DNA of 32,000 bases from the NCBI RefSeq assembly GCF_008065095.1, contig NZ_CP042911.1, positions 2,850,001 to 2,882,000 on the forward strand, read 5' to 3'. Shown piece after piece: positions 18,140-29,766 of this stretch (position 1 is its first letter; every line of letters begins with the position of its first letter). Origin of the DNA: Gemmata obscuriglobus (GTDB lineage Bacteria > Planctomycetota > Planctomycetia > Gemmatales > Gemmataceae). Below the pieces are notes generated by a model, which worked only from the letters and a program-made list of their open reading frames with translations, was not told where the DNA came from and did no database searches. The position numbers and the translations under genes were made by a program.

Positions 18140-19396
18140 TTATGACCCAACGTAGGCGGGCTGGCGGACGGCCGAAGTCCAGACATCGTCCAGCCGCTCG
18201 GCGAGCAAATCCCACGAGTAACGCGCCAGCACCCGCTGCCGACCGCTCTCGGCGGTGTCCTGGAGTTGGTCACCGGCGCGGATCGCGGCAAGCGTCGCGT
18301 TCACCATTCCTTCTGGCGTTTCCGCGACGAGCAGGTCGCGATTCGGTTCGAGTTCCAACCCCTCCGCTCCGACGCGGGTGCTGACGACGGGCGTGCCCGC
18401 GGCCAGCGCCTCGAGGATTTTGAGCCGCGACCCCCCGCCGATCCGCAGCGGGACGGTGAGGAACTCGCACCGGGCGAGGAAGGGCCGCACGTCGGGAACG
18501 TCCGCGTGCAGTTCCGCCCCGGGCGTGTCGGCCGCCAGCGCCCGGAGCCATTCGGGCGGGCGCCGGCCCACGAGAACGGCCGTCGCGTGCGGCACTTCCG
18601 CCCGGACCGCCGGCAGGATGTGTGTGAGCAACTGGGCCGCGGCGTCCTGGTTGGGGCGCCAGTCGAGGCTCCCCATGAAGAGCATCTGTGCCGGGGTGCG
18701 CTCGACGTCGCGCTGCGGTCGGAAGTACGCGACATCGACGCCGTTCTCCACCACCCGCACCCGCCTACCGCCGAACTCCGCGCGCATGAGTGCGGCGTCC
18801 TCGCGGCTGACCGCGACGGCGGTCGTGGCGGCGGCGTAGGCCCACCGCTCGAACCGCTCGAACTTCCGCAACTGCTGGCGGATGTACCACCGCTTCATCG
18901 GGTTCTCGGCGGTTTCGGCGTACCGCCGCCAGATGAGCGATTCGACGTTGTGGGCCATCACGGTCCACCGGGCCGATTCCATCTTCGGGCCGAGGGCGGC
19001 GCGCAGCACCTGGGCGTACGGGGTCCACTCGCAGTGCCACACGTCAACGTCTCGCTCCGCGTCGAACGCGCGGGCCGCTTCCGCGAGCGCGGGCGAGGTG
19101 TGCGTGCTGACGGAGTAGGGCAGGGGGGAGAGCAAGTTGCCCGCGAGCCGCGCGTAGAACCCCGGGCCGGACTTCGACGGGACCGCGCGGTCCACGACGA
19201 CGGTTTCGATGCCCGCGTCGCGGAACGCTTCTTCCGCGGCCAGCGCCTCGTCGCGGTCGGGGTTGCGGTGGCACAGCACCGTCACGTTGTGGCGTGGGGC
19301 GAGCCGTGCGAGCAGGTTGAAGGTTCGGATCCGTTTCCCGGACGTGAGCGGGAACGGTAGTTCTTCGTCGAGAACGGCGATGTTCAGTCGGCGCAT
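18140..19396 (-). CDS. glycosyltransferase family 4
   Basis: From ATG 19396 (GGAAGGGA upstream) it reads MRRLNIAVLDEELPFPLTSGKRIRTFNLL. The C-terminal GGGSRLKILEALAAGTPVVST motif is GT4-like. The tracked ORF begins at 19477. Confidence 0.85.
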   Translation of the reverse strand: MRRLNIAVLDEELPFPLTSGKRIRTFNLLARLAPRHNVTVLCHRNPDRDEALAAEEAFRDAGIETVVVDRAVPSKSGPGFYARLAGNLLSPLPYSVSTHTSPALAEAARAFDAERDVDVWHCEWTPYAQVLRAALGPKMESARWTVMAHNVESLIWRRYAETAENPMKRWYIRQQLRKFERFERWAYAAATTAVAVSREDAALMRAEFGGRRVRVVENGVDVAYFRPQRDVERTPAQMLFMGSLDWRPNQDAAAQLLTHILPAVRAEVPHATAVLVGRRPPEWLRALAADTPGAELHADVPDVRPFLARCEFLTVPLRIGGGSRLKILEALAAGTPVVSTRVGAEGLELEPNRDLLVAETPEGMVNATLAAIRAGDQLQDTAESGRQRVLARYSWDLLAERLDDVWTSAVRQPAYVGS

Positions 19397-19537
19397 CCGG
19401 AAATCCCTTCCCAGCTTGTGGGGAGGAATTGTCTCCGAACCGCCGGCCCCTCGCAACCGCAGTTTTTCGGCGTGCAATGCGAGCCGCGGTGTGGTTCGAT
19501 AGCGGCGCCCGGTTCTCTGACACGGAGGATTTTACCC

Positions 19538-20161: not shown

Positions 20162-21871
20162 TCACCCTGCCCGCAAGAGCTTGGCCGCGTTGAGCATCTC
20201 CGCCGCCTCCTTGCGGGTCGTTTCGCTGCGCGACTCGCCCCGCAGCATGATCGCCAGCTCTTCCACCCGGGATTCATCGGTCAGCAACGGGGTGATCGTG
20301 GTGGCGGTGCGCTTCGTGGTGGACTCCTTACGGATGGTCCACTGGTACCCGGCGTAGCTCGCCACTTGCGGCAAGTGTGTCACGCACAGCACCTGGTGCG
20401 ACTGGCCCAGCGTCGAGAGCTTCTGGCCGAGCATGTCCCCGAGCCGGCCGCCGACGTTCGAGTCGATCTCGTCGAACACCACCAGCGTGCGCACCGGGTC
20501 GTGCGCCGCCAGCACCGTTTTGAGCGCCAGCATGGTGCGCGACAGCTCACCGCCGCTGGCCACCTTCCGGAGCGGCCGGGCCGGTTCGCCCGGGTTCGCC
20601 ATCAGGATCAGTTCCAGTTGATCGATGCCGAACGCCGGGATGTCGCCCGCCATCGGGTCGTCCGGCAGGTTGATGAGTTCAATGACGGCGTCGAGCTTGG
20701 CCTTGGGCATGCCGAGGTCGGCGAGGTGCTTTTGTGCGTCCCCCGCGAGCTTCTTCGCCACCTTGGCCCGTCCCTTACTCAGGACGTTGGCGGCGTCGCG
20801 CATTTCGGCGTAGGCGGCGCGGAGGTGGCCGTCAATTCCGCTCAGGTTGTCTTCCTGCTCCTGAAGTTCCGCTTCCTTTTCGTCGAGGGTGTCGCGGTAC
20901 GCGAGGAGCTCGTCGGGCGTCTTGCCGTAGCGGGTTTGGAGCTTCTTCAGCAGTCCGATGCGTTTTTCGACCTCGCCCAGCCGCTCGGGGTCGGCCTCGA
21001 AACGCTCGGCGAGGTCGCGGCACGTGTCGGCGAGGTCGTCGATCTCCGGGCGCAGGGCGTTGAGCCGCTCGCTCACCTCCGCGAGCTTCGGGTCGAACGA
21101 CGCCCATTTGTGCGCCTCTTTAATCAGGCGGCTCACCACTTCCGAAACGGCCCCGTCGTTGTCCACGAGGCGGGCCGCGACCCCGCTCGTGAACTGGGCG
21201 AGGCTCTGCGCGTGAACGAGCCGCTCGCGCTCTTTCACGAGGGCCGGCAGCTCGCCCGGCGTGAGCTTTGCGGCGTTGAGGTCTTCGCGCTCGAACCGGA
21301 CCAGCGCCAGCTCGCGCTGGCGCGCCGCCCGCGCGTCGGCCAGGTTCTTGAACTGCGACCGCAGCTCGCGCACCTTCTCCGCTTTCTCGAGGTACTTCTT
21401 GCGCAGGTCGGTGAGGCGGCCGAACGCGTCAAGCAGTTCGAGCTGGTACGCGGGCTGGAGGAGCGAGTAGCTCTCGCGCTGGCCGTGAACGTCCACCAGC
21501 ATTTCGCCGATCCGCCGCAGGGTCGAAACGGCGACGGGCACGTCGTTCACGAGGGCCGAACTGCGGCCCGATCGTGAGAGCCGGCGGGTGAGGATGAGGT
21601 CGTCCTCTTCGACGGCCGTTTGGAGGGCCTGGGACGCGGCCTCGCGCTGCTCGGGGCGGGTCAGCTCGAACCGCCCAGTTACGCGCAACTCGTCCGCCCC
21701 GGTGCGGATCAGGTCGGCGCTGCCGCGCTCGCCGAGGAGCAACCCAAGGGCGCCGAGCAGCAGCGACTTGCCGGCCCCGGTCTCGCCGGTCCACGCGCAG
21801 AACCCTGCGTGCAGTTCGACCCGCACGTCTTCGATCAGGGCCAGATTTTGGACGGATACTTCGCGGAGCAT
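20162..21871 (-). CDS. recN: DNA repair protein RecN
   Basis: From ATG 21871 it reads MLREVSVQNLALIEDVRVELHAGFCAWTGETGAGKSLLLGALGLLLG (RecN N-terminus with Walker A). It has a long central coiled coil and a C-terminal ASGGELSRTMLALK signature plus LVFDEIDSNVGG Walker B. Confidence 0.95.
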   Translation of the reverse strand: MLREVSVQNLALIEDVRVELHAGFCAWTGETGAGKSLLLGALGLLLGERGSADLIRTGADELRVTGRFELTRPEQREAASQALQTAVEEDDLILTRRLSRSGRSSALVNDVPVAVSTLRRIGEMLVDVHGQRESYSLLQPAYQLELLDAFGRLTDLRKKYLEKAEKVRELRSQFKNLADARAARQRELALVRFEREDLNAAKLTPGELPALVKERERLVHAQSLAQFTSGVAARLVDNDGAVSEVVSRLIKEAHKWASFDPKLAEVSERLNALRPEIDDLADTCRDLAERFEADPERLGEVEKRIGLLKKLQTRYGKTPDELLAYRDTLDEKEAELQEQEDNLSGIDGHLRAAYAEMRDAANVLSKGRAKVAKKLAGDAQKHLADLGMPKAKLDAVIELINLPDDPMAGDIPAFGIDQLELILMANPGEPARPLRKVASGGELSRTMLALKTVLAAHDPVRTLVVFDEIDSNVGGRLGDMLGQKLSTLGQSHQVLCVTHLPQVASYAGYQWTIRKESTTKRTATTITPLLTDESRVEELAIMLRGESRSETTRKEAAEMLNAAKLLRAG

Positions 21872-22205
21872 ACCGGCATGGTACCCGACCGGCCAAATTT
21901 GCCTACCAAAGCCGGGTTTACCCGGTCTTTTTGGCAGTATACGCCGGTACACAAATCCTTGCAAGCGGTATTAATCGACCTGCAGTGTGGCGAGAAGATG
22001 CCGCCATCACTGGTGCCGAACGGCGGGCGCACTGCCTGACCGAGTGCGACATCCAATTCCAGGGACGACTGCCGAGATCCGAGCGTTGTTGACGCGCATG
22101 CAGGCCGACGAGCACCATTCCGGTGGTCCGGAAGATGTTACCCGCGGGTCTGCGTGACCCTACCATTTTGCTGCGACTGGGCTCCGTGCGAGGGTTCTTG
22201 GCACG

Positions 22206-22397
22206 CCACAGGTCTTTGGGGCCGTTGACCGGTTGTGCGAAGATGACCGCACGCGCTGGGGCGAGCGGCCGCAGTGCACATAGGAGGTGTAGTGCAGGTG
22301 GCGGACCGACTTCTCCCGTGGAGGCAGCATTAATGGCGTCCAGCGGGAGGGCAACTTCGATCAACTTCTTCGGGGCGACAACGGACACGTCAGACAC
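22206..22397 (-). pseudogene. decayed N-terminal remnant of a DUF1156-type (putative DNA methylase) gene
   Basis: The first 64 aa of tracked ORF 21918..22397 read [52 protein letters not shown]. This matches the DUF1156 signature as I remember it ([44 protein letters not shown]), but the conserved GHPS/WWARRP core is deleted or mutated. The remaining roughly 900 aa expected for this family are missing. Confidence 0.6.
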
Positions 22398-22474: not shown

Positions 22475-23782
22475 CAGGGCAAACGCACTCAATCCTCGGG
22501 ATTTTTCAGTAGTACCTGTTCGAGGTAGGTATTATCCCATCCGGCCTTGAGTCGCCGGTTCTTGATCCCACATTTGGCGTTTGCCTTCTTCAACATCGCC
22601 AAGGCGATCTTGCGCACGAGGGCCATATTCTGCGGGCCGTGCCCTTCACGGAGTCGGTGGTCGTCTTCTCGGAACGCGACATCCAGCACCCAATGGCATG
22701 AATTCTCGATGCACCAATGAGCCCGGATCCACGTTTGGAACCGCTTGGCCGATGCCTTCCGCGAGCTGATGTAATACCGCACCTCGTCGCTCGTCCTACC
22801 GGCGACCGTGCGGCTGCTGACGAGCACCACGACGGACCGCAACCGGGGCCACACATTCCGGTCCCGGATCGACTCCAGGTCGTCGATCACGAAGCAGAAC
22901 CGCATCTCCTCGCGCCCGTGGCCCGTTCCTTCGTTGAGGTCGGTCGAGCGGCCCGCGTAGCTCGCCTCTAGGGCCCCCTCGGCCAACCGCTGGATGTCCT
23001 CGAGCAGCCGCGGCTGGTTGTCCTTGACCGCCAGCAGGTAGTCCCCCTTGGCGGCCACGATCTGCTGGGCGATGTCCTTCTGGGTGCCCATCGCGTCGAT
23101 GCTCACCAGGGCCCCCGCGAGGTCCAGCCGCTCCAGCAGTTCCGGGATCGCGGTGATCTCGTTGGACTTCTCGTCGGTCTTCACCTGGGCCAACGTGAGG
23201 CCCAACTGCTGAGCCCATGCGCTGACGATGTGTGTGGCCTTGCGAGCCCCCGTGCCGGTGACCCGCTTGGACCCCCGCATGGTCTTCCCGTCGATCGGGA
23301 TGTGGGGCACCCGGAGGCCCTCGGCGGCGTCCGCGACCCACGCCCGGAAGCACCGCCCGAACGCCTCCGGGCGGACCAGCGCGAACACCCGGTTGAGGGT
23401 GTCGTGGGACGGAATCCCGTTGCGCAGCGTCAGCCCCAGCCGGTCCCGGAACCAGGACTCCTTGGCCCGCGCGAACTCGGCGATCGACACGAAGTCATCG
23501 GCCCCGACGATCGTCCCACAGGTCACGATCATGAGTACATCAATCAAGTCGTGGAAGCACTTCAACTCGACCCGCGGATCCGGGATCTGGGACAGGTACT
23601 CGATTAACGGGCGTGGGCCGGGGGCGGCACTCATCGGCAGACTCCGAGGCGGTGAGGGCGCGCCAGAATCATATGGAGGCGGGGCCGCACATGCGCAGGA
23701 GGCGAGCGATGGCCGCTCGATCACACGCCTCAAAATTAGCTAGAATCCAGCGATTCCTAGGGGATTGAGTGCGTTTGCCCTG
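22475..23782 (-). mobile_element. ISAs1-family insertion sequence, apparently intact (1308 bp)
   Basis: Perfect 21-bp terminal inverted repeats cagggcaaacgcactcaatcc (22475-22495) and ggattgagtgcgtttgccctg (23762-23782). They begin with CAGGG, which I recall as typical for ISAs1 ends. They are flanked by a perfect 10-bp direct repeat gccgtgcacg (22465-22474 and 23783-23792). Confidence 0.9.
22489..23634 (-). CDS. ISAs1 family transposase (H-repeat-associated type)
   Basis: From ATG 23634 it reads LIEYLSQIPDPRVELKCFHDLIDVLMIVTCGTIVGADDFVSIAEFA...GIPSHDTLNRVF (DDE_Tnp_1-associated N-domain), followed by a DDE domain (IDAMGTQKDIA...YYISS...RAHWCIENSCHWVLDVAFRED). Confidence 0.92.
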   Translation of the reverse strand: MSAAPGPRPLIEYLSQIPDPRVELKCFHDLIDVLMIVTCGTIVGADDFVSIAEFARAKESWFRDRLGLTLRNGIPSHDTLNRVFALVRPEAFGRCFRAWVADAAEGLRVPHIPIDGKTMRGSKRVTGTGARKATHIVSAWAQQLGLTLAQVKTDEKSNEITAIPELLERLDLAGALVSIDAMGTQKDIAQQIVAAKGDYLLAVKDNQPRLLEDIQRLAEGALEASYAGRSTDLNEGTGHGREEMRFCFVIDDLESIRDRNVWPRLRSVVVLVSSRTVAGRTSDEVRYYISSRKASAKRFQTWIRAHWCIENSCHWVLDVAFREDDHRLREGHGPQNMALVRKIALAMLKKANAKCGIKNRRLKAGWDNTYLEQVLLKNPED

Positions 23783-23965
23783 GCCGTGCACGTCCTCAGC
23801 GATCCAGATCGGGAGTGTAGACAATAGACCCTGTTCACGATAAGGAACGAATAGACATAAACTCTTTCAGATAAGAGTCTTGAATATAAATTAGCGCATT
23901 TGAATCAAACCAATTGCTGACAAGTAATTCTGCTTATCTTGAACAGGATTTAATGGCTGTCAACG

Positions 23966-23999
23966 AAAAACCCTCGCTGACAATTACTGTCAGCGAGGG
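23966..23999 (-). terminator. intrinsic terminator (minus strand) downstream of the tRNA fragment
   Basis: Perfect 12-bp stem ccctcgctgaca/tgtcagcgaggg with a 5-nt loop (23971-23999). On the minus strand it is followed immediately by TTTTT (23966-23970). It lies 17 nt downstream of the tRNA 3' end. Confidence 0.65.
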
Positions 24000-24016
24000 T
24001 CTCGCGTATCAACAAG

Positions 24017-24058
24017 TCGGGCTGATAGGATTTGAACCTACGACCTCTTGGTCCCGAA
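24017..24058 (-). pseudogene. 3' half of a tRNA-Pro(CGG): anticodon loop through discriminator base, with no 5' half
   Basis: The minus strand reads ttcggga-ccaag-aggtc-gtagg-ttcaaat-cctat-cagcccg-a. That is an anticodon loop (U33, CGG, G37), the 3' anticodon stem, a 5-nt variable loop, a canonical T-arm (GTTCAAATC), the 3' acceptor strand and the discriminator. The 31 nt upstream cannot supply the complementary acceptor (cgggctg), the D-arm or the 5' anticodon stem (cttgg). This holds even after conceptually excising the adjacent IS. Confidence 0.7.
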
Positions 24059-24070
24059 GCACCCCGATCC

Positions 24071-25667
24071 CAGTGCTATGCACATCTTGGATTTGTATAA
24101 CTGATTGCGGATTGCTGATTTAGGGTTTTCACTGCGACGAAATTGGGGTTAACCGAGTGGTCGTGGGACGCGGGGTGGTGCGGGGTCCGCGACCCGGGAC
24201 ATGGAGGTCACCGTGATTCTGCCACCTCATCAGCGCGTCCCACGCTCCCAACCGCACGCGCCCACGGACTTCGCGCGCCAGGTCCTGGAGGGCCTGCCAC
24301 TGGCCCACGCGTCGCTCGCACTCTTCGCCTATGGCGTTCCCGACCCGGTCCTCGCGGACCTCTACGAGCGACATCGGGGACGCGGCTATGAGGACGTCGT
24401 GACCTTCGCCCAACTGGTCACCTGGATCTTCGATGCGCTCATCGAACACCAGGGCTCGGGGCGGCAGGCCCACCTGCGACGCCACCGGCAACCCGACGAC
24501 GGGTGCCACGAAGCGTTCTACGGCAAGCTCCGGCGCATCCCCCGGGGCCTGAGCGAAGCGTTCCTGCGGGACGTCACCGACCGGTTCACCGCCCTGTTCC
24601 CCGAGGTCGTCGCGCACCGCCTTCCGACCTCCTTCGACCGCCTGGAGGTTCTGATCCTCGACGGCAAGAGTCTCAAGAAGGTGGCCAAGCGACTCGTCGA
24701 CACGCGGGGCACACCGGGCAAGCTCTTGGGCGGAAAACTGCTCGTGGCGTACCGGCCCCGTGACGGGTTGGTGCTCGACATGGCGGCCGATCTCGATGGC
24801 GAAACCAACGAGGCCAAACTGATCCCCGATTTGATGCCCCGAGTGCACGCCCGAGGCGGTCCGGCGAAACTGGTGGTCGGGGATCGGTTGTTCTGTGCGT
24901 CGAAGCACTTCGCCGAGTTCACCAAGGACAATGGTCATTTCGTGGTGCGGTACGCGCGGACCCTGTCGTTCGAACCCGACCCGAAGCGCCCCGCGGTCAC
25001 GACCGCGGACCCATCCCAACGAGCCGTGGTCGAAGAATGGGGGTGGGCCGGGAAGCCCAAGGACAAGCTCCGCCGGTACGTCCGGCGGATCACCGTCGCG
25101 CGCCCGGTGGGCGAAGCGATTACAATCCTCACGGACCTGCTCGATTCGGCCCCATACCCGGCGACCGATCTGTTGGACCTGTACCGCATCCGGTGGACCA
25201 TCGAAGGCACGTTCCAAAAGGTGACGGCGATCTTCGCCCTGGGTCGGTTCATCGGTTCGACACCGGAGGCGACCGTGTTTCAGGCGTCGATGTGTTTCGT
25301 CCTCGCGAACGTGGTGCAGGTCCTCCAGGGCTATGTGGTTGCGAAGCGGAAGGTGACCATCGACGACCTCTCGACGGCGCAGTTCTGCACGGACTGGCAT
25401 CGTCAGTTGGCCGCGCTCAAGGAGTTGGTCGAGGTGTCGATGATCGTGTCCCTGATCCCGACGGATCAGACGGCAGAGAGTGTGGGAACGTTGTTGGATC
25501 AGTTATTGGGCACGATGTGGAAGCCGGGCTGGGACAAGACACGCAACAAGGCGCCCCGTGCCCACCCGCACGCCGCGAAACAGAAGGGGGCACACACCTC
25601 CGTCCAACGGCGTCGACAAGCCCACAAGCCCAACGAGGATCCCTGAACTCAGTTGTGCACAGCACTG
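24071..25667 (+). mobile_element. IS4-family insertion sequence, apparently intact (1597 bp)
   Basis: Terminal inverted repeats cagtgctatgcaca (24071-24084) and tgtgcacagcactg (25654-25667) match at 13 of 14 positions. They are flanked by a perfect 9-bp direct repeat ccccgatcc (24062-24070 and 25668-25676). The element has a single transposase ORF. Confidence 0.88.
24201..25646 (+). CDS. IS4-family DDE transposase
   Basis: 481 aa. LILDGKSLKK, LVVGDRLFC and YRIRWTIEGTFQKV (the Y-x2-R-x3-E signature of IS4-type DDE transposases) are present, with a basic C-terminal tail. Confidence 0.9.
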   Translation: MEVTVILPPHQRVPRSQPHAPTDFARQVLEGLPLAHASLALFAYGVPDPVLADLYERHRGRGYEDVVTFAQLVTWIFDALIEHQGSGRQAHLRRHRQPDDGCHEAFYGKLRRIPRGLSEAFLRDVTDRFTALFPEVVAHRLPTSFDRLEVLILDGKSLKKVAKRLVDTRGTPGKLLGGKLLVAYRPRDGLVLDMAADLDGETNEAKLIPDLMPRVHARGGPAKLVVGDRLFCASKHFAEFTKDNGHFVVRYARTLSFEPDPKRPAVTTADPSQRAVVEEWGWAGKPKDKLRRYVRRITVARPVGEAITILTDLLDSAPYPATDLLDLYRIRWTIEGTFQKVTAIFALGRFIGSTPEATVFQASMCFVLANVVQVLQGYVVAKRKVTIDDLSTAQFCTDWHRQLAALKELVEVSMIVSLIPTDQTAESVGTLLDQLLGTMWKPGWDKTRNKAPRAHPHAAKQKGAHTSVQRRRQAHKPNEDP

Positions 25668-25898
25668 CCCCGATCCGTCGTGCCGATCTACCTGAAACGC
25701 CTTGGAATACATGCACTTTATCGCACTGAGCCCGCCGAGGCAAGGCGAGCAGTCCGATGCGATTCGTAGCAGGTTTTCGCAGTACCGCGCACCGAAATCC
25801 AGTACGCGACCTCCATCGGCAAACGGCAACAGCAACCCGAAGCGGGACATCCCGCTCTTGCGCCGCCCGGAGTTCGGCAGCGCGCACGCCGACCCGTC

Positions 25899-25907
25899 TG
25901 GTAGAAT
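25899..25907 (+). promoter_or_regulatory. possible extended -10 promoter element for the nuclease cassette
   Basis: TGgTAGAAT lies 43 nt upstream of ATG 25950. There is no convincing -35, and planctomycete promoter rules are poorly known. Confidence 0.2.
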
Positions 25908-25949
25908 GACGGCGTTCGTGGCCGTGCCTGGTGAGGAGCCGATCCGCAG

Positions 25950-26438
25950 ATGGGCAAGTCGGACTTCGTCGGCGGGCGGGGCGAGGCGATCGCCTTCCCC
26001 CGGCTCACGCGGATCTGCCGGGCCGACGACCTGCCGTACTTCTGGCCCCACTACCTGGGGGAGAAGTGCCCGGCGTTCGACTTCCTGGTCGAGTTGGTCG
26101 ACGCCGGGGAGAAGACGCCGTTCTTCTTCGTGCAGGTGAAGAGCACGCGGAAGGCATACACGACGACCCAGACCCCGCCGCGGCTGCGGGTCGATGTGTC
26201 CGACACCGACGTGCGGCGGTTGGCAGCATTCCCAGCCCCGACGTATGTGGTCGGGGTGTACGAGAAGGACGAGCGGGCGTTCGTCGTCTCCGTACACGGC
26301 GAGATGCGCGAGGCCATCCCGTCGATCACCACCGGGCACGAACTCACCTGCGACACGCTGAAGCTGCTGTGGGACGAGGTGCGGGAGTTCTGGCACGGCC
26401 GCGACATGACGCGGGCCGCGTCCCAGTTCACGAACTGA
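25950..26438 (+). CDS. DUF4365-like PD-(D/E)xK nuclease-fold protein (cassette gene A)
   Basis: A GAGGAG RBS lies 13 nt upstream of the ATG. The layout GGRGEAIA ... PAFDFLVEL ... FFFVQVKSTRK ... PTYVVGVYEKDERAFVVSV matches the DUF4365 pattern (G-x-GE, D-x-hydrophobic-E, vQvK, then 'PvilVvyd...ayw'). Confidence 0.7.
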   Translation: MGKSDFVGGRGEAIAFPRLTRICRADDLPYFWPHYLGEKCPAFDFLVELVDAGEKTPFFFVQVKSTRKAYTTTQTPPRLRVDVSDTDVRRLAAFPAPTYVVGVYEKDERAFVVSVHGEMREAIPSITTGHELTCDTLKLLWDEVREFWHGRDMTRAASQFTN

Positions 26439-26447
26439 GGTGCTGTC

Positions 26448-26924
26448 GTGACGAACGAGTCGAAGGAGCTGTTCATCGCCGACCGGGTGCGGGCGCTGGC
26501 GACCGTCGTCCTGACCCGCCGCGACGACCTGGCCGTCGCCGAGACCAAGCAGAGCACCGGCCTGGACTACCACGTGTACGTCGAGCGCGAGGACAAGCCG
26601 ATGCGGCTCGCGTTCGGCGTCCTCCTGCGCGGCGTGTCCTCCCCCGTGACGGCCGAGCACGCGAACAAGGTGCTTGGGCCGACGATAGGACAGTTCCAGG
26701 GGATGCGGAAGTTCACCTACCCGGTGTGCCTGTTCTTCTTCACCATGCGGGACGAGCAGGCGTTCTTCTCGTGGCTGGCCGAGCCCCGCGTGACCGACGC
26801 CGGGCCGAAGCTCGTCCACCACGATCAGGCGAACTGCGCGCCCCTGACCGACGAGTTGCTCGACGGGATCGTCGAGCAGGTGGTGAGCTGGTACGACGCG
26901 GTGGAGGCCGTCCTCATCGCGTAG
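26448..26924 (+). CDS. DUF4365-like paralogue with an altered catalytic motif (cassette gene B)
   Basis: GTG start 9 nt after the stop of A, with GAGG upstream. It has the same layout as A: TGLDYHVYVERED ... AFGVLLRGV ... YPVCLFFFTMRDEQAFFSWL. By hand alignment the QxK of A is LxR here. Confidence 0.55.
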   Translation: MTNESKELFIADRVRALATVVLTRRDDLAVAETKQSTGLDYHVYVEREDKPMRLAFGVLLRGVSSPVTAEHANKVLGPTIGQFQGMRKFTYPVCLFFFTMRDEQAFFSWLAEPRVTDAGPKLVHHDQANCAPLTDELLDGIVEQVVSWYDAVEAVLIA

Positions 26925-26988
26925 CGACCCTCCGAACGCCCCGGCGGTGTGGAACGCACGCCGCGCGAGGAATGTCGGTCCAGGCGCC

Positions 26989-27390
26989 ATGGCGAGCAAG
27001 CAACCACCGTCGGAACGACAGGCCGGGGCCATGAAGCACGTCAACCTCGATGACTGCGACGAGGCGGTCAAGAACTTCGTCCTGTCCTTCGCGCTCACCC
27101 CGGGCGGGGCCGCGCTGGAACTCGGGGGAAGGCCCATCGCGCACGTGCTGCCGATCTTGGCGACGGGTGAAGCCGCCGACGACTGGGACGCGGCGAAGGA
27201 CGCCCGCCGGTGCGAACTCATCGACCGGGAGATCGCCGGGACGATCACCGGCGGCGAGGCCGCGGAGTTGCAGGCCCTCCAGGCGGCGATGCTCTGGCAC
27301 CGGCGGAAGGTGGCCCCGCTCCCGCTCGACGACGCCCGGCGCTTGCACCGGGAGCTGCTGGCGAAGGCGGCCGGCGGCCCGACCGCATGA
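26989..27390 (+). CDS. small acidic protein, antitoxin-like N-terminus plus helical C-terminus (cassette gene C); start uncertain
   Basis: Tracked ORF 26947..27390; candidate starts are GTG 26947, ATG 26989 and ATG 27031. MKHVNLDDCDEAVKNFVLSFALTPGGAALELGGRPIAHVLP resembles the Phd/YefM-style pattern (...G-x-P-hydrophobic-A-x-hydrophobic-x-P). Its stop overlaps the next ATG (ATGA at 27387-27390). Confidence 0.5.
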   Translation: MASKQPPSERQAGAMKHVNLDDCDEAVKNFVLSFALTPGGAALELGGRPIAHVLPILATGEAADDWDAAKDARRCELIDREIAGTITGGEAAELQALQAAMLWHRRKVAPLPLDDARRLHRELLAKAAGGPTA

Positions 27391-27982
27391 CACCCCCGTT
27401 CGCCTACCCGGCCCTGCCGCACGTCCGCCGCCGCGGGGGTACGCCGACCACGACGGCTACCGGCCGTGGCTCCGGGACGAGTTTGCGTCCCGGTGCGTGT
27501 ACTGCCCGCGGCGGGAGCAGTGGGGGCTGGTGAAGGGCACGTTCGCGGTCGATCACTTCGTCCCCGTAGCCGTCCGCCCCGACGTCGCCACCGACTACGA
27601 CAACCTCGTCTACGTGTGCGCGAGTTGCAACGCGGGGAAGGCGGCCCACGCGCTGCCCGACCCGTGCGAGGTGCTCTTGCGCGACGACGTGCGTGTGGCG
27701 GAGGACGGGGCGATCGAAGGCGACACGCCGGAGGCCCGGCGACTGATCCGCGTCCTCGGCCTCGACGACGCGGAGTACACCGAGTTCCGCTGCCTGTGGA
27801 TCGGCATCGTCGCCCTGGCGGCGAGACACGACCCGGAACTCTTCCGGCGACTGATGGGCTATCCGGCCGACCTGCCTGATCTCGGGGCGTTGAAGCCCCC
27901 GGGCGGGAACACCCGGCCCGGCGGCGTCGCCGCGTCGCACTTCGAGCGACGCGCACGGGGCGAACTGCCCGAGCCCTACTGA
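27387..27982 (+). CDS. HNH endonuclease (cassette gene D), apparently frameshifted near the 5' end
   Basis: The HNH core, in the frame of tracked ORF 27050..27982, reads RCVYCPRRE...FAVDHFVPVA...DYDNLVYVCASCNAGK. The only sensible start is ATG 27387, which overlaps the upstream stop but is in a different frame (MTPPFAYPALPHVRRRGG..., stop at 27533). The HNH frame has no start codon between 27389 and the first Cys. Confidence 0.65.
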
Positions 27983-28240
27983 GTGGAGTGTAAGGCCGGG
28001 AGCGACGTGGGTCCGATGTGCCCGAAGTGCCTGATCCGGCACCTCCTGAGTTGCGGGCAACTCGGCTGAGGGGCCAGATCGTCGTTCGCGGGGAACTGCT
28101 CACCGTCACGAACGCGATGCGGCGACGACTGGAGAGTGGTGCGTGACGCCCCGGCGGTCGCGGTTGCGGGGTACAGGCCAGAGACAGCAACCGCGGCACT
28201 GAGGCTACAGATACCCAACCCACCCCTGTGTACATGACCG

Positions 28241-29513
28241 CTACGGTTTTTCGGCCTTGAGCAGTCGGGCCGTGGCGACGTGACCTGTTCCGGTTCCACT
28301 GTCCCGCGGTGGCCGGGGCTTCTTCGGCCCCCGCGGGCTGGTCACGAAATCGGCCGGCCGCACATGCCCGGCCAGCACGATCAATACCTTCGCCATCCGG
28401 GCTCGACCGCCGTCCCGTGGGCCGCCCGGATGCCGGCCTTGATGCCGGCCAGCACGTTGTACGAGCACAGGGCGACGGCGAACGCGAACAGGGACGCTCG
28501 AGGGTACCCGAGCCCGGCCACCTCACCGTGCAAGGCCGCGGCCAACTCGCCGAACGCGGCCTCGATCCCCCACCGCCCCCGGTACAGTTCGGCCACCCGA
28601 GCCGCCGGCACGCTCGCCGGCAGGTTGGTCTCGCCGGCAGGTTGGTCAGGATGCGGATCTCCCGGTCGCCGTCCCGGGTCGGCGTGTCGAGGGCCACCGT
28701 CACCCGGCGGACCGTCAACTCCCCGCCGGCCCCATCCGACACCCGCACCGCCTCCTCGAACACGGTCCCGGTGTCGGTACGCCCGGCGGCCGTCCGCTCC
28801 CCGACGCCGAGTTCGGTCGGGGTGAGCCCGTGCTGGCGGACGACGAAGCACCCGCACCGACCGGCCGTGCCGACTAGCAGCCGGGTGGTGCAGAAGTTGC
28901 GGTCCCCGACCCACACCGTGGCCGGCTCGGCCCACCCCAGGATGGCCGGGGTGAGGGACCGCTCCTGGGCGTGGGCGTCCTCGCACGGGATGGCGTCGAG
29001 GACCAGCCCGCTCGCCGGCTCGAACAGTACCACCGCCTGACCCGGCAGAGCTCCGGCCCGGGTCCGCCGGAGCGGGCGGAGGCGGTGCTCGGTTCCCGGC
29101 AGGTGGCTCCCGTCGATGACCCGCACACGGTACCCCGGCACCGGCTCCTCGGCGGCCGGGCCGAGGGCCGCGACGACCGGTCCGAGTCGGGCGGCGGTGT
29201 GCCGCACCAAGGCGGCCCCCAGACCTGGCTCGGTGCGGGCAACCTTGGCGTACACCGCCTTGCGGGTCACCCCGAGTTCGGTCGCCCGCTTGCGGATGGC
29301 GGCGTTGAGCGACGGCTGGACGCGGCAGACGACCAACCCCATCAGATCGACCAACTGGGAGAAGAGCAACTCGCGGGTGTACTGCCGCTCGGCGTGCTCG
29401 GCGAACAACTCGTCCACGGCCTCAGCCGGAAGGGCGTGCTCGAACGCCGCTCGGGCCATGACGCTGACCGGGGACTCGGCCGCGAACCGATCGAACACCT
29501 CACCGAAGAGCAT
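28241..29513 (-). pseudogene. IS4-like DDE transposase, disrupted by at least two frame changes
   Basis: The N-terminal about 290 aa (start of tracked ORF 25503..29513) read AEHAERQYTRELLFSQLVDLM, VIDGSHL, VWVGDRNFCT, FVVRQH and REIRILTNLPA. The Y-R-E motif YRGRWGIEAAF continues in the frame of ORF 28381..28986. The basic tail (KKPRPPRDSGTGTGHVATARLL) is in the frame of ORF 28241..28468. Confidence 0.8.
28613..28646. repeat. perfect 17-bp tandem duplication inside the transposase pseudogene
   Basis: ctcgccggcaggttggt occurs at 28613-28629 and is repeated exactly at 28630-28646. Deleting one copy joins ...ILTNLPA to SVPAARVAELYRGRWGIEAAF in frame. Confidence 0.95.
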
Positions 29514-29766
29514 GGCCGTCCATCCGTGCGGGGCAGAACTCCAATCGTCACCAACAGGTTACGACCGCCCACGTCATGTACACAGGGATGAGATACTCAA
29601 CCCTCACCCGGGACGGGGGCTGGCTCACCTCCACTTCGACCGTCCAGAGTGGTCAACCCGGGGCAGCCGACTCCCTTGCCACGGCTGGCCGTTTTGGCCG
29701 TTCATGAGCTTCGAGCTGACGCAGGGCGAGCCGAGGCTCGCCGGCGGTAGTTGGTGTCGATGGCCG

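Follow-up and report, generated by a model that had tools for sequence, protein, structure and literature searches.

Four small genes of Gemmata obscuriglobus lie closely packed on one strand between insertion sequences (IS), and they raise the question of whether such packing reflects a single functional system. They occupy positions 25950 to 27982 of the 32,000-nt stretch of contig NZ_CP042911.1 analysed here (hereafter the window, to which all coordinates refer). A sequence-only reading of the window had proposed that these genes, called A to D, form one uncharacterised defence or addiction cassette. Our analyses indicate that they are probably two autonomous two-gene modules, A-B, composed of a DREN-type nuclease and a decayed paralogue, and C-D, composed of a partner protein and a broken HNH nuclease. 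Their adjacency is likely to be specific to G. obscuriglobus and to have arisen in an IS-ridden, decaying accessory region. The features on which this account is built are as follows.

25950..26438, + strand: gene A, predicted DUF4365 (DREN-type) PD-(D/E)xK nuclease of 162 aa, assigned by Pfam PF14280 and its intact catalytic set
26448..26924, + strand: gene B, divergent DUF4365 paralogue of 158 aa with a decayed active site, assigned by Pfam matches of its family, hhalign, and AlphaFold2 (AF2) modelling with Foldseek
26934..27010, no strand: junction between the modules, without homology to the loci of either module in other genomes
27031..27390, + strand: gene C, acidic 119-aa protein and partner of D, in which three C-terminal helices follow a small alpha/beta N-terminal part
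27387..27982, + strand: gene D, HNH endonuclease pseudogene whose start overlaps the stop of C (ATGA) and whose other frame runs to 27982

The four open reading frames (ORFs) and their spacing are as the sequence-only reading had described them, with a 9-nt gap between A and B and the ATGA overlap of C and D at 27387-27390. The motifs that it quoted are all in place, namely GE, FDFLVEL and VQVK in A, LLR in B, and CVYC..DH..N..CASCN in D. It had given a gap of 22-106 nt between B and C, depending on the start of C. We placed the start at the ATG at 27031, 106 nt after B, because the resulting product is 100% identical to the G. obscuriglobus protein GobsT_24450 and most homologues are 118-119 aa long. 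The G+C contents at third codon positions, 0.88-0.96 for A, B and C, identify these three as real coding frames. The region is 99.9-100% identical in three other G. obscuriglobus assemblies.

We gathered loci from isolate genomes, metagenome-assembled genomes (MAGs) and metagenomes through homologues of A, B and C. None of the ~23 A-B loci from other genomes has C or D within 4-6 kb, and A or B is present at none of the 80 C loci. Among the genomes sampled, the two pairs are neighbours in G. obscuriglobus only. Likewise, the blastn matches to other genomes cover 25949-26933 and 27011-27982 as distinct blocks: those to A-B loci stop at 26911-26933 and those to C-D loci start at 27011-27028. Each pair has been kept independently, in unrelated neighbourhoods. 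Clustering of the flanking ORFs yielded no third conserved partner gene for either pair; the recurring families were abundant WD40, kinase and sigma paralogues at varying positions. As the four genes are syntenic in no other sampled genome, the four-gene cassette fails by a refuting condition that the sequence-only reading had itself set. The sequence-only reading was thus accurate on the sequence and right on proteins A, B and D individually, and wrong on the system. More generally, genes packed tightly between IS elements can look like an operon. Here, comparing synteny across genomes resolves the apparent cassette into two unrelated modules, and one of these has already decayed to a pseudogene, with D broken.

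The possibility that A-B or C-D is an IS passenger was also considered and rejected, because the flanking IS transposases do not adjoin either pair elsewhere.

The A-B pair

Gene A scores 30.4 bits against PF14280 (DUF4365), above the gathering score of 24.3 bits (E-value 4.8e-7), which bears out its earlier assignment to the PD-(D/E)xK nucleases. Its active-site set (D44, E48, Q62 and K64) is complete, and its motif D-x3-(D/E)...Q-x-K matches the published DxGxD...QxK. D44 and E48 are present in all 121 A sequences and Q62 in 119 of them; position 64 is Lys in 110 and Arg in the other 11. We collected 373 homologues of A, of which the 120 listed are 69-93% identical to it. No match for A was detected in PADLOC, NCBIfam or PHROGs, a search of PDB sequences with the A profile returned chance-level matches only, and a scan of a viral contig collection found no relatives. 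The sequence identifies A as a predicted DUF4365/DREN-type PD-(D/E)xK nuclease with what appears to be a catalytically competent set of residues.

The B family is equally well populated. It has 483 homologues, the 120 listed being 72-87% identical and nearly all exactly 158 aa long, and a profile search of 1.84 billion representatives gave 665 B-like clusters, nearly all of ~160 aa. The B protein of the window itself has no match in Pfam, PADLOC, NCBIfam or PHROGs, and its profile gave chance-level matches only among PDB sequences. At the level of the family, PF14280 is matched weakly by 12 of 32 close relatives and by 42 of the 88 distant members sampled (best E-value 3.4e-15). By the curated Pfam threshold, B is therefore a divergent relative of DUF4365 and not a member. 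Aligning the shallow A and B families with hhalign gave a non-significant E-value of 0.085; significance was reached only after widening the B alignment with distant representatives (probability 90.9%, E-value 1.1e-6 over 142 columns). The AF2 model of B (predicted local distance difference test score, pLDDT, 81.7) has an alpha-beta-beta-beta-alpha-beta core, and its best PDB matches in Foldseek are the DREN-APAZ chains of SPARDA (9jsz, 9vx6 and 9qcc, probability 0.99).

The active site of B has decayed. D40 is retained, LLR stands in place of the QVK of A and Arg in place of its E12, so that B does not carry the DUF4365 catalytic motif. R61 of the LLR is present in 121 of 121 B sequences, and the D+4 position is Tyr, Ser, Phe or Thr. 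Distant B proteins still have EVK or QVK, which indicates that the LLR state is derived. Across the family, the catalytic positions drift and R13, T23, R25, P92, W109, P113 and Y149 stay fixed. The view that B is a same-fold paralogue of A with decayed catalytic residues, the two forming an active/inactive pair as first suggested from their motifs, is therefore well supported by the family-level Pfam matches, hhalign, the structural matches to DREN and the LLR site.

B directly follows A, with a gap of ~9-50 nt, in 22 of the 23 other-genome loci with room downstream, the exception being Fimbriiglobus ruber, whose B has no A before it. This order is found in core Gemmatales relatives (A 65-79%, B 71-77% identical) and, at lower identity (A 44-59%, B 28-43%), in distant pairs of Chthonomonadaceae and further MAGs, and the identities of A and B co-vary (r = 0.92 over 16 loci). 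A-B is an obligate pair, co-inherited through many Gemmatales genomes and more distant relatives. A pattern-based scan of a genome collection for A-B was insensitive: it returned 21 loci and missed G. obscuriglobus itself.

The pair also has a promoter-like element upstream.

25901..25907, + strand: promoter-like -10 box GTAGAAT (TGGTAGAAT), 49 nt upstream of the A start codon

The box GTA(G/A)(A/G)AT or a close variant precedes A by 39-67 nt in 12 of the 23 distinct loci, compared with 2.4% of random 150-nt windows, and would represent a promoter travelling with A-B. A generic sigma-70 promoter scan of positions 25600-28300 found nothing. In a subset of A-B loci (L014, L015, L019-L021, L031, L032 and L119), a second conserved motif, GGATG(T/C)C, precedes the GTA(A/G)(A/G)AT box by ~17-19 nt, at about -77 to -91 from the A start codon, and could be a -35 element or an operator. 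The region upstream of A in the window is devoid of it and has the palindrome GCGGGACATCCCGC at 25842-25855 instead.

The genomic position of A-B differs in every genome examined, and elsewhere housekeeping genes predominate around it, among them the Suf operon and the genes for NAD synthase and acyl-CoA dehydrogenase. In one set of metagenome contigs from JGI (L115-L118), A-B has on one side a PIN-MazE toxin-antitoxin pair and a plasmid RepA_C gene, and on the other type I-U cas genes (Cas_GSU0053, Cas_GSU0054 and Cas3). Outside G. obscuriglobus, no other neighbourhood of A-B that we saw clearly resembles a defence or plasmid region.

Several loci depart from the simple arrangement. A or B appears frameshifted in L003/L015, L119, L021 and L028, from MAG assemblies with contig_N-style names, and these frameshifts may be assembly indel errors rather than pseudogenes. 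L021 has a second, partial copy of B ~1.8 kb downstream. Two contigs of one Chthonomonadaceae MAG (L029 and L030) carry identical distant A-B pairs; A-B can therefore occur in two copies or on a repeated element.

As for mechanism, DUF4365 corresponds to the DREN nuclease of SPARDA, which has a PD-(D/E)xK fold. On its own, the DREN domain is an inactive monomer; cleavage requires a D2 tetramer, which forms inside the Argonaute filament (PMC12205087). In TmuRE, the active site comprises Q62 and K64, which are needed for activity, and the residues of the conserved DUF4365 motif DxGxD...QxK are likewise required. DUF4365 is toxic in Escherichia coli as part of EAT16, a toxin of an extracellular contractile injection system (eCIS), and point mutations in DxGxD..QxK abolished that toxicity. 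The Vibrio integron cassette defence protein Divona also contains DUF4365. Every characterised DUF4365 protein found in our literature search is a defence effector or a toxin.

Given that DREN acts only when oligomerised, the most likely arrangement is a hetero-oligomer of A and B, with A as the catalytic subunit. In such a putative assembly, A would contribute the active sites and B the non-catalytic protomers. B would then either help to build the active assembly or keep A out of it; the second option would follow a toxin-immunity logic. Possible roles for the pair are those of a defence or abortive-infection effector and of a conserved nucleic-acid processing enzyme.

The C-D pair

The C protein has no sequence match in Pfam, PADLOC, NCBIfam, PHROGs or the PDB, and a scan of the viral contig collection found no relatives. 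Its AF2 model (pLDDT 82.4) consists of a short helix, a beta-hairpin and three helices, and its sole confident Foldseek match is the helical hairpin of YnzC/UPF0291 (42 residues, 40% identity). The N-terminus of C had been thought to resemble Phd/YefM antitoxins. That resemblance found no support: a Pfam search with 33 C-family members at E-values up to 1 gave no Phd/YefM family, nor any other sequence-family match, and no Phd/YefM structure is among the top 50 Foldseek matches to the C model.

The C-terminal helical module of C (W..K..RR..LIDREI..LT..E..EL..LQ....VAPLPL..AR.LH.ELL) also occurs alone or behind other N-termini, without D, in loci L089, L090, L093, L101, L109, L110 and L112. In L093, it precedes a gene whose N-terminus resembles DUF262 by eye. 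This module may be a portable partner domain.

D consists of a PtuB-like core followed by a C-terminal extension of ~100 aa. Its HNH domain matches Pfam HNH (PF01844) with an E-value of 3.2e-6, in agreement with the nuclease fold read from its motifs. Against the PADLOC PtuB models, D gives 1e-8 and an intact homologue 3e-11, in both cases over the HNH core only; matches to the NCBIfam PtuB and TIGR02646 models are weak, at ~20 bits. The intact homologue, of 200 aa in locus L010, has the same ATGA overlap and aligns to the window in two frames. The frameshift that had been suspected in D is a deletion.

27436..27437, + strand: site of a 7-bp deletion in D, which shifts the frame after codon 17 and appears as a 7-column gap against the three intact homologues of L010, L034 and L035

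Assemblies from independent read sets (L008 and L009) are 100% identical across this site, and all three other assemblies of the locus have the same truncated D call. The deletion is therefore not an assembly error. The annotated 161-aa remnant of D starts at GTG 27497, inside the first CxxC, and has lost the first Cys. The HNH domain is thus not in an intact frame here, the deletion parting the start codon from the domain. D is a pseudogene in G. obscuriglobus, a member of the HNH family by descent, and C is intact.

A Logan contig (L009, run SRR9494610) covers window positions 26954-28195, exactly the C-D unit, beginning in the B-C spacer. If this run is RNA-derived, the contig would indicate a separate C-D transcript.

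D lies immediately 3' of C in 51 of the 69 metagenomic C loci that have at least 250 nt downstream. The combination of an intact C with a broken or absent D occurs in the window and in L033, L045, L058, L084, L104 and L106/107, an asymmetry that is biased by the choice of C-D loci through C. In L106 (5001-7510) and L107 (2445-4954), C breaks off at about residue 97, and ~1.6 kb of inserted DNA separates it from an intact D, a further form of natural disruption of the pair. C-D is a translationally coupled pair of a small acidic, mostly helical protein and an HNH nuclease. The gene order, the ATGA coupling and the decay pattern suggest an effector/neutraliser pair, in which D would be the effector and C its neutraliser or regulator.

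Competing readings

The idea of A-B-C-D as one four-gene defence or addiction system, with two nuclease folds and a neutraliser, draws on the tight, same-strand packing in G. obscuriglobus, on the defence remnants and IS elements of the local setting, and on the B-C interval, in which a generic promoter/terminator scan of 25600-28300 found no terminator-like site. We regard it as highly improbable in view of the loci from other genomes, none of which joins the pairs, of the DNA homology interrupted between B and C and of the separate conservation of the two pairs in unrelated neighbourhoods. For A-B taken by itself, three readings were weighed. The pair might be a Gemmatales-wide housekeeping heteromeric endonuclease specific for DNA or RNA structures, with one catalytic and one structural subunit and no part in defence. 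The 69-93% identity of the listed homologues, the fixed lengths, the hundreds of sequence clusters in several genera, the conserved promoter-like box of its own, the housekeeping genes next to it and the lack of relatives in the viral contig collection are all in keeping with this. The position that changes from genome to genome, as for accessory genes, and the defence or toxin function of every characterised DUF4365 protein from the literature search argue the other way, and we hold this reading to be unlikely, if not markedly so. Toxin-immunity, or abortive infection, would have B act as a decoy protomer that caps A and blocks its homo-oligomerisation, its loss or sequestration in infection or stress unleashing A. 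This would agree with the inactivity of DREN before tetramerisation, the toxicity of the DUF4365 domain within EAT16, the nature of B as a same-fold paralogue without catalytic residues, an orphan B in Fimbriiglobus ruber, as expected of a leftover immunity gene, and the few A-B loci beside PIN-MazE, cas genes or IS elements. It is fairly unlikely on our assessment, as B is more conserved than A (82% versus 69% mean column identity), unlike typical fast-evolving antitoxins, the neighbourhoods are mostly housekeeping, PADLOC gave no match, and relatives of A and C were not found in the viral contig collection. Lastly, A-B might be a self-contained DREN-type system in which the dead paralogue B gates the oligomerisation-dependent activation of A. 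Such an Argonaute-free, two-gene counterpart of the SPARDA effector, widespread in Gemmatales, would serve as a stress- or infection-triggered switch for DNA degradation; we put this forward tentatively, as a rather improbable but specific proposal.

For C-D, C may not neutralise D at all and may instead serve a mobile HNH nuclease as a subunit for DNA binding or specificity, or regulate its transcription. Its C-terminal helical module is found with other N-termini and next to other genes, it matched no antitoxin family, and D is not basic. The upstream position of C, the ATGA coupling and the intact C beside broken or missing D fit toxin loss, and we consider this alternative to be on the doubtful side. 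Returning to the two-module account as a whole, several observations weigh against it or against its parts. As no terminator was found between B and C, the four genes could be co-transcribed in G. obscuriglobus. The structural link to DREN consists of the Pfam match for A and a modest Foldseek match for B (E-value 9e-3, template modelling score 0.42-0.51), and 11 of the 121 A proteins have Arg instead of K64, an unusual exchange for a catalytic Lys. F. ruber (NIDE01000014, L113 5391-6000) has a B that is 77% identical and no A within 6 kb; the 600 nt upstream of this B, the sole orphan seen, carry short repeated palindromic sequence, and B may act alone there or A may lie elsewhere in that genome. 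The role of C as a neutraliser is deduced from gene order, coupling and decay pattern only, C has no match to a known antitoxin fold, and the isoelectric point of D is 5.7.

Setting of the locus and comparison with known systems

As the sequence-only reading had noted, IS elements bracket the block, and the locus has the remnant of a methylase and the scar of a tRNA in addition to several IS elements.

20162-21964, - strand: SMC-like ATPase of 600 aa matching the MADS component mad3 (PADLOC E-value 9e-29)
21918-22394, - strand: DNA methylase fragment of 158 aa, DUF1156 N-terminal domain only, ending beside the IS at 22475
22475-23782: complete IS, bounded by perfect terminal inverted repeats of 21 nt, whose transposase has DDE_Tnp_1_assoc and DDE_Tnp_1 domains
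24017-24060, - strand: tRNA 3'-half (T-arm and acceptor strand, ...GGTCGTAGGTTCAAATCCTATCAGCCCGA on the minus strand) within the AT-rich interval 23800-24130
24201..25646, + strand: transposase ORF of the left flanking IS (Pfam DDE_Tnp_1, E-value 5e-15); the extent is that of the ORF, not of the element ends
28221..29590, - strand: right flanking IS with 18-nt inverted repeats (I6) at 28221-28238 and 29573-29590 and its transposase in two frames

The mad3-like ATPase and the DUF1156 methylase fragment look like a MADS-like system disrupted by IS insertion. The tRNA 3'-half, which neither ARAGORN nor Rfam called, is probably an integration-site scar at an island boundary; no Rfam RNA family was found in the window. 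With the ATPase, the methylase fragment, the tRNA scar and the IS upstream, this decayed accessory region makes the block resemble a defence island here. As a general property of A-B this setting did not hold, since most A-B loci in other genomes lie among housekeeping genes and are devoid of the decayed defence-island context of G. obscuriglobus.

The transposase of the right-hand IS (28381-29513, - strand) is split: DDE_Tnp_1 matches its C-terminal fragment at 28381-28986, and the N-terminal part, at 28630-29513, is in another frame. This IS looks inactivated or reliant on frameshifting. On the left, the short-read contig L008 begins at window position 25638, inside the transposase ORF. A transposase related to that of the IS at 22475-23782 is found directly after the C-D pair in an unrelated JGI contig. 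ARAGORN also called a tRNA with a two-base anticodon at 19255-19344 (+ strand), inside a glycosyltransferase gene at 18140-19477 (- strand); Rfam detected nothing there, and the call is almost certainly a false positive.

Searches of PADLOC 2.0, NCBIfam, Pfam and the literature matched neither pair to a named system, in line with the earlier impression of an unnamed gene combination; for A, B and C, PADLOC and NCBIfam gave no match. The nearest structural match of C is YnzC/UPF0291 (DUF896) of Bacillus subtilis, whose structure 3bhp superposes on residues ~54-94 of C with a root-mean-square deviation of 0.3-0.7 Å over 42 residues (40% identity, probability 1.0). YnzC is a ~50-residue protein of unknown function, and the match covers one hairpin of C, which says little about the role of C.

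Like type II toxin-antitoxin systems with Phd/YefM, C-D is bicistronic, with the small acidic protein encoded first and a stop/start overlap, and one C homologue is labelled as an antitoxin by the automatic annotation of JGI. It differs from them in that C has neither a Pfam match nor such a structure in its Foldseek list. HNH nucleases are not known as classical partner toxins of Phd/YefM.

With Septu (PtuA ATPase and PtuB HNH nuclease), C-D shares the HNH core of D, which aligns best with the PADLOC PtuB models (E-values 1e-8 to 3e-11). Only ~60-80 residues of that core align to Septu or TIGR02646 models, however, the score of D against the NCBIfam PtuB model NF041761 is 20.1 bits for a cut-off of 150, and the match to the retron-associated HNH family TIGR02646 is ~20 bits for a cut-off of 52. 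D has no PtuA-like ATPase; its 119-aa partner has no ATPase motif, and the same applies in 51 other loci. As no ATPase accompanies D, C-D is not Septu. The SMC-like ATPase at 20162-21964 was considered as a displaced PtuA for D and rejected: it matches mad3 at 9e-29 and PtuA only at E-values above 1e-3, and two IS elements separate it from D, which is on the opposite strand. C-D is an uncharacterised small HNH module, dead in G. obscuriglobus.

A resembles Divona and EAT16 in having the DUF4365 domain, which serves there as a DNA-damaging effector. Those are single multidomain proteins, in which the domain is fused to an Mrr-like nuclease and crr6 or to a delivery domain, unlike the two separate proteins of A-B.

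The closest known relative of A-B is the DREN of SPARDA, which is a DREN-APAZ protein acting with a short prokaryotic Argonaute. A belongs to the same Pfam family and has the same catalytic residues, with Q62 and K64 numbered as in TmuRE; the B model matches DREN-APAZ chains best; and the dependence of DREN on oligomerisation gives a rationale for a two-subunit form. In contrast with SPARDA, A and B comprise the nuclease fold alone, without an APAZ domain or an Argonaute, their neighbours are IS transposases and C-D, and the partner of A is an inactive paralogue in place of a guide-dependent sensor. A-B is a new arrangement of a known nuclease family, conserved at ~70-90% identity throughout one planctomycete order. 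Recent work has established DUF4365/DREN as a collateral nuclease that becomes active when it tetramerises within Argonaute filaments. If our reading is true, A-B adds a compact two-gene candidate for defence or DNA processing in a little-tested phylum, and a standalone active/inactive DREN-like pair would show how such an effector can be controlled without a guide-dependent sensor.

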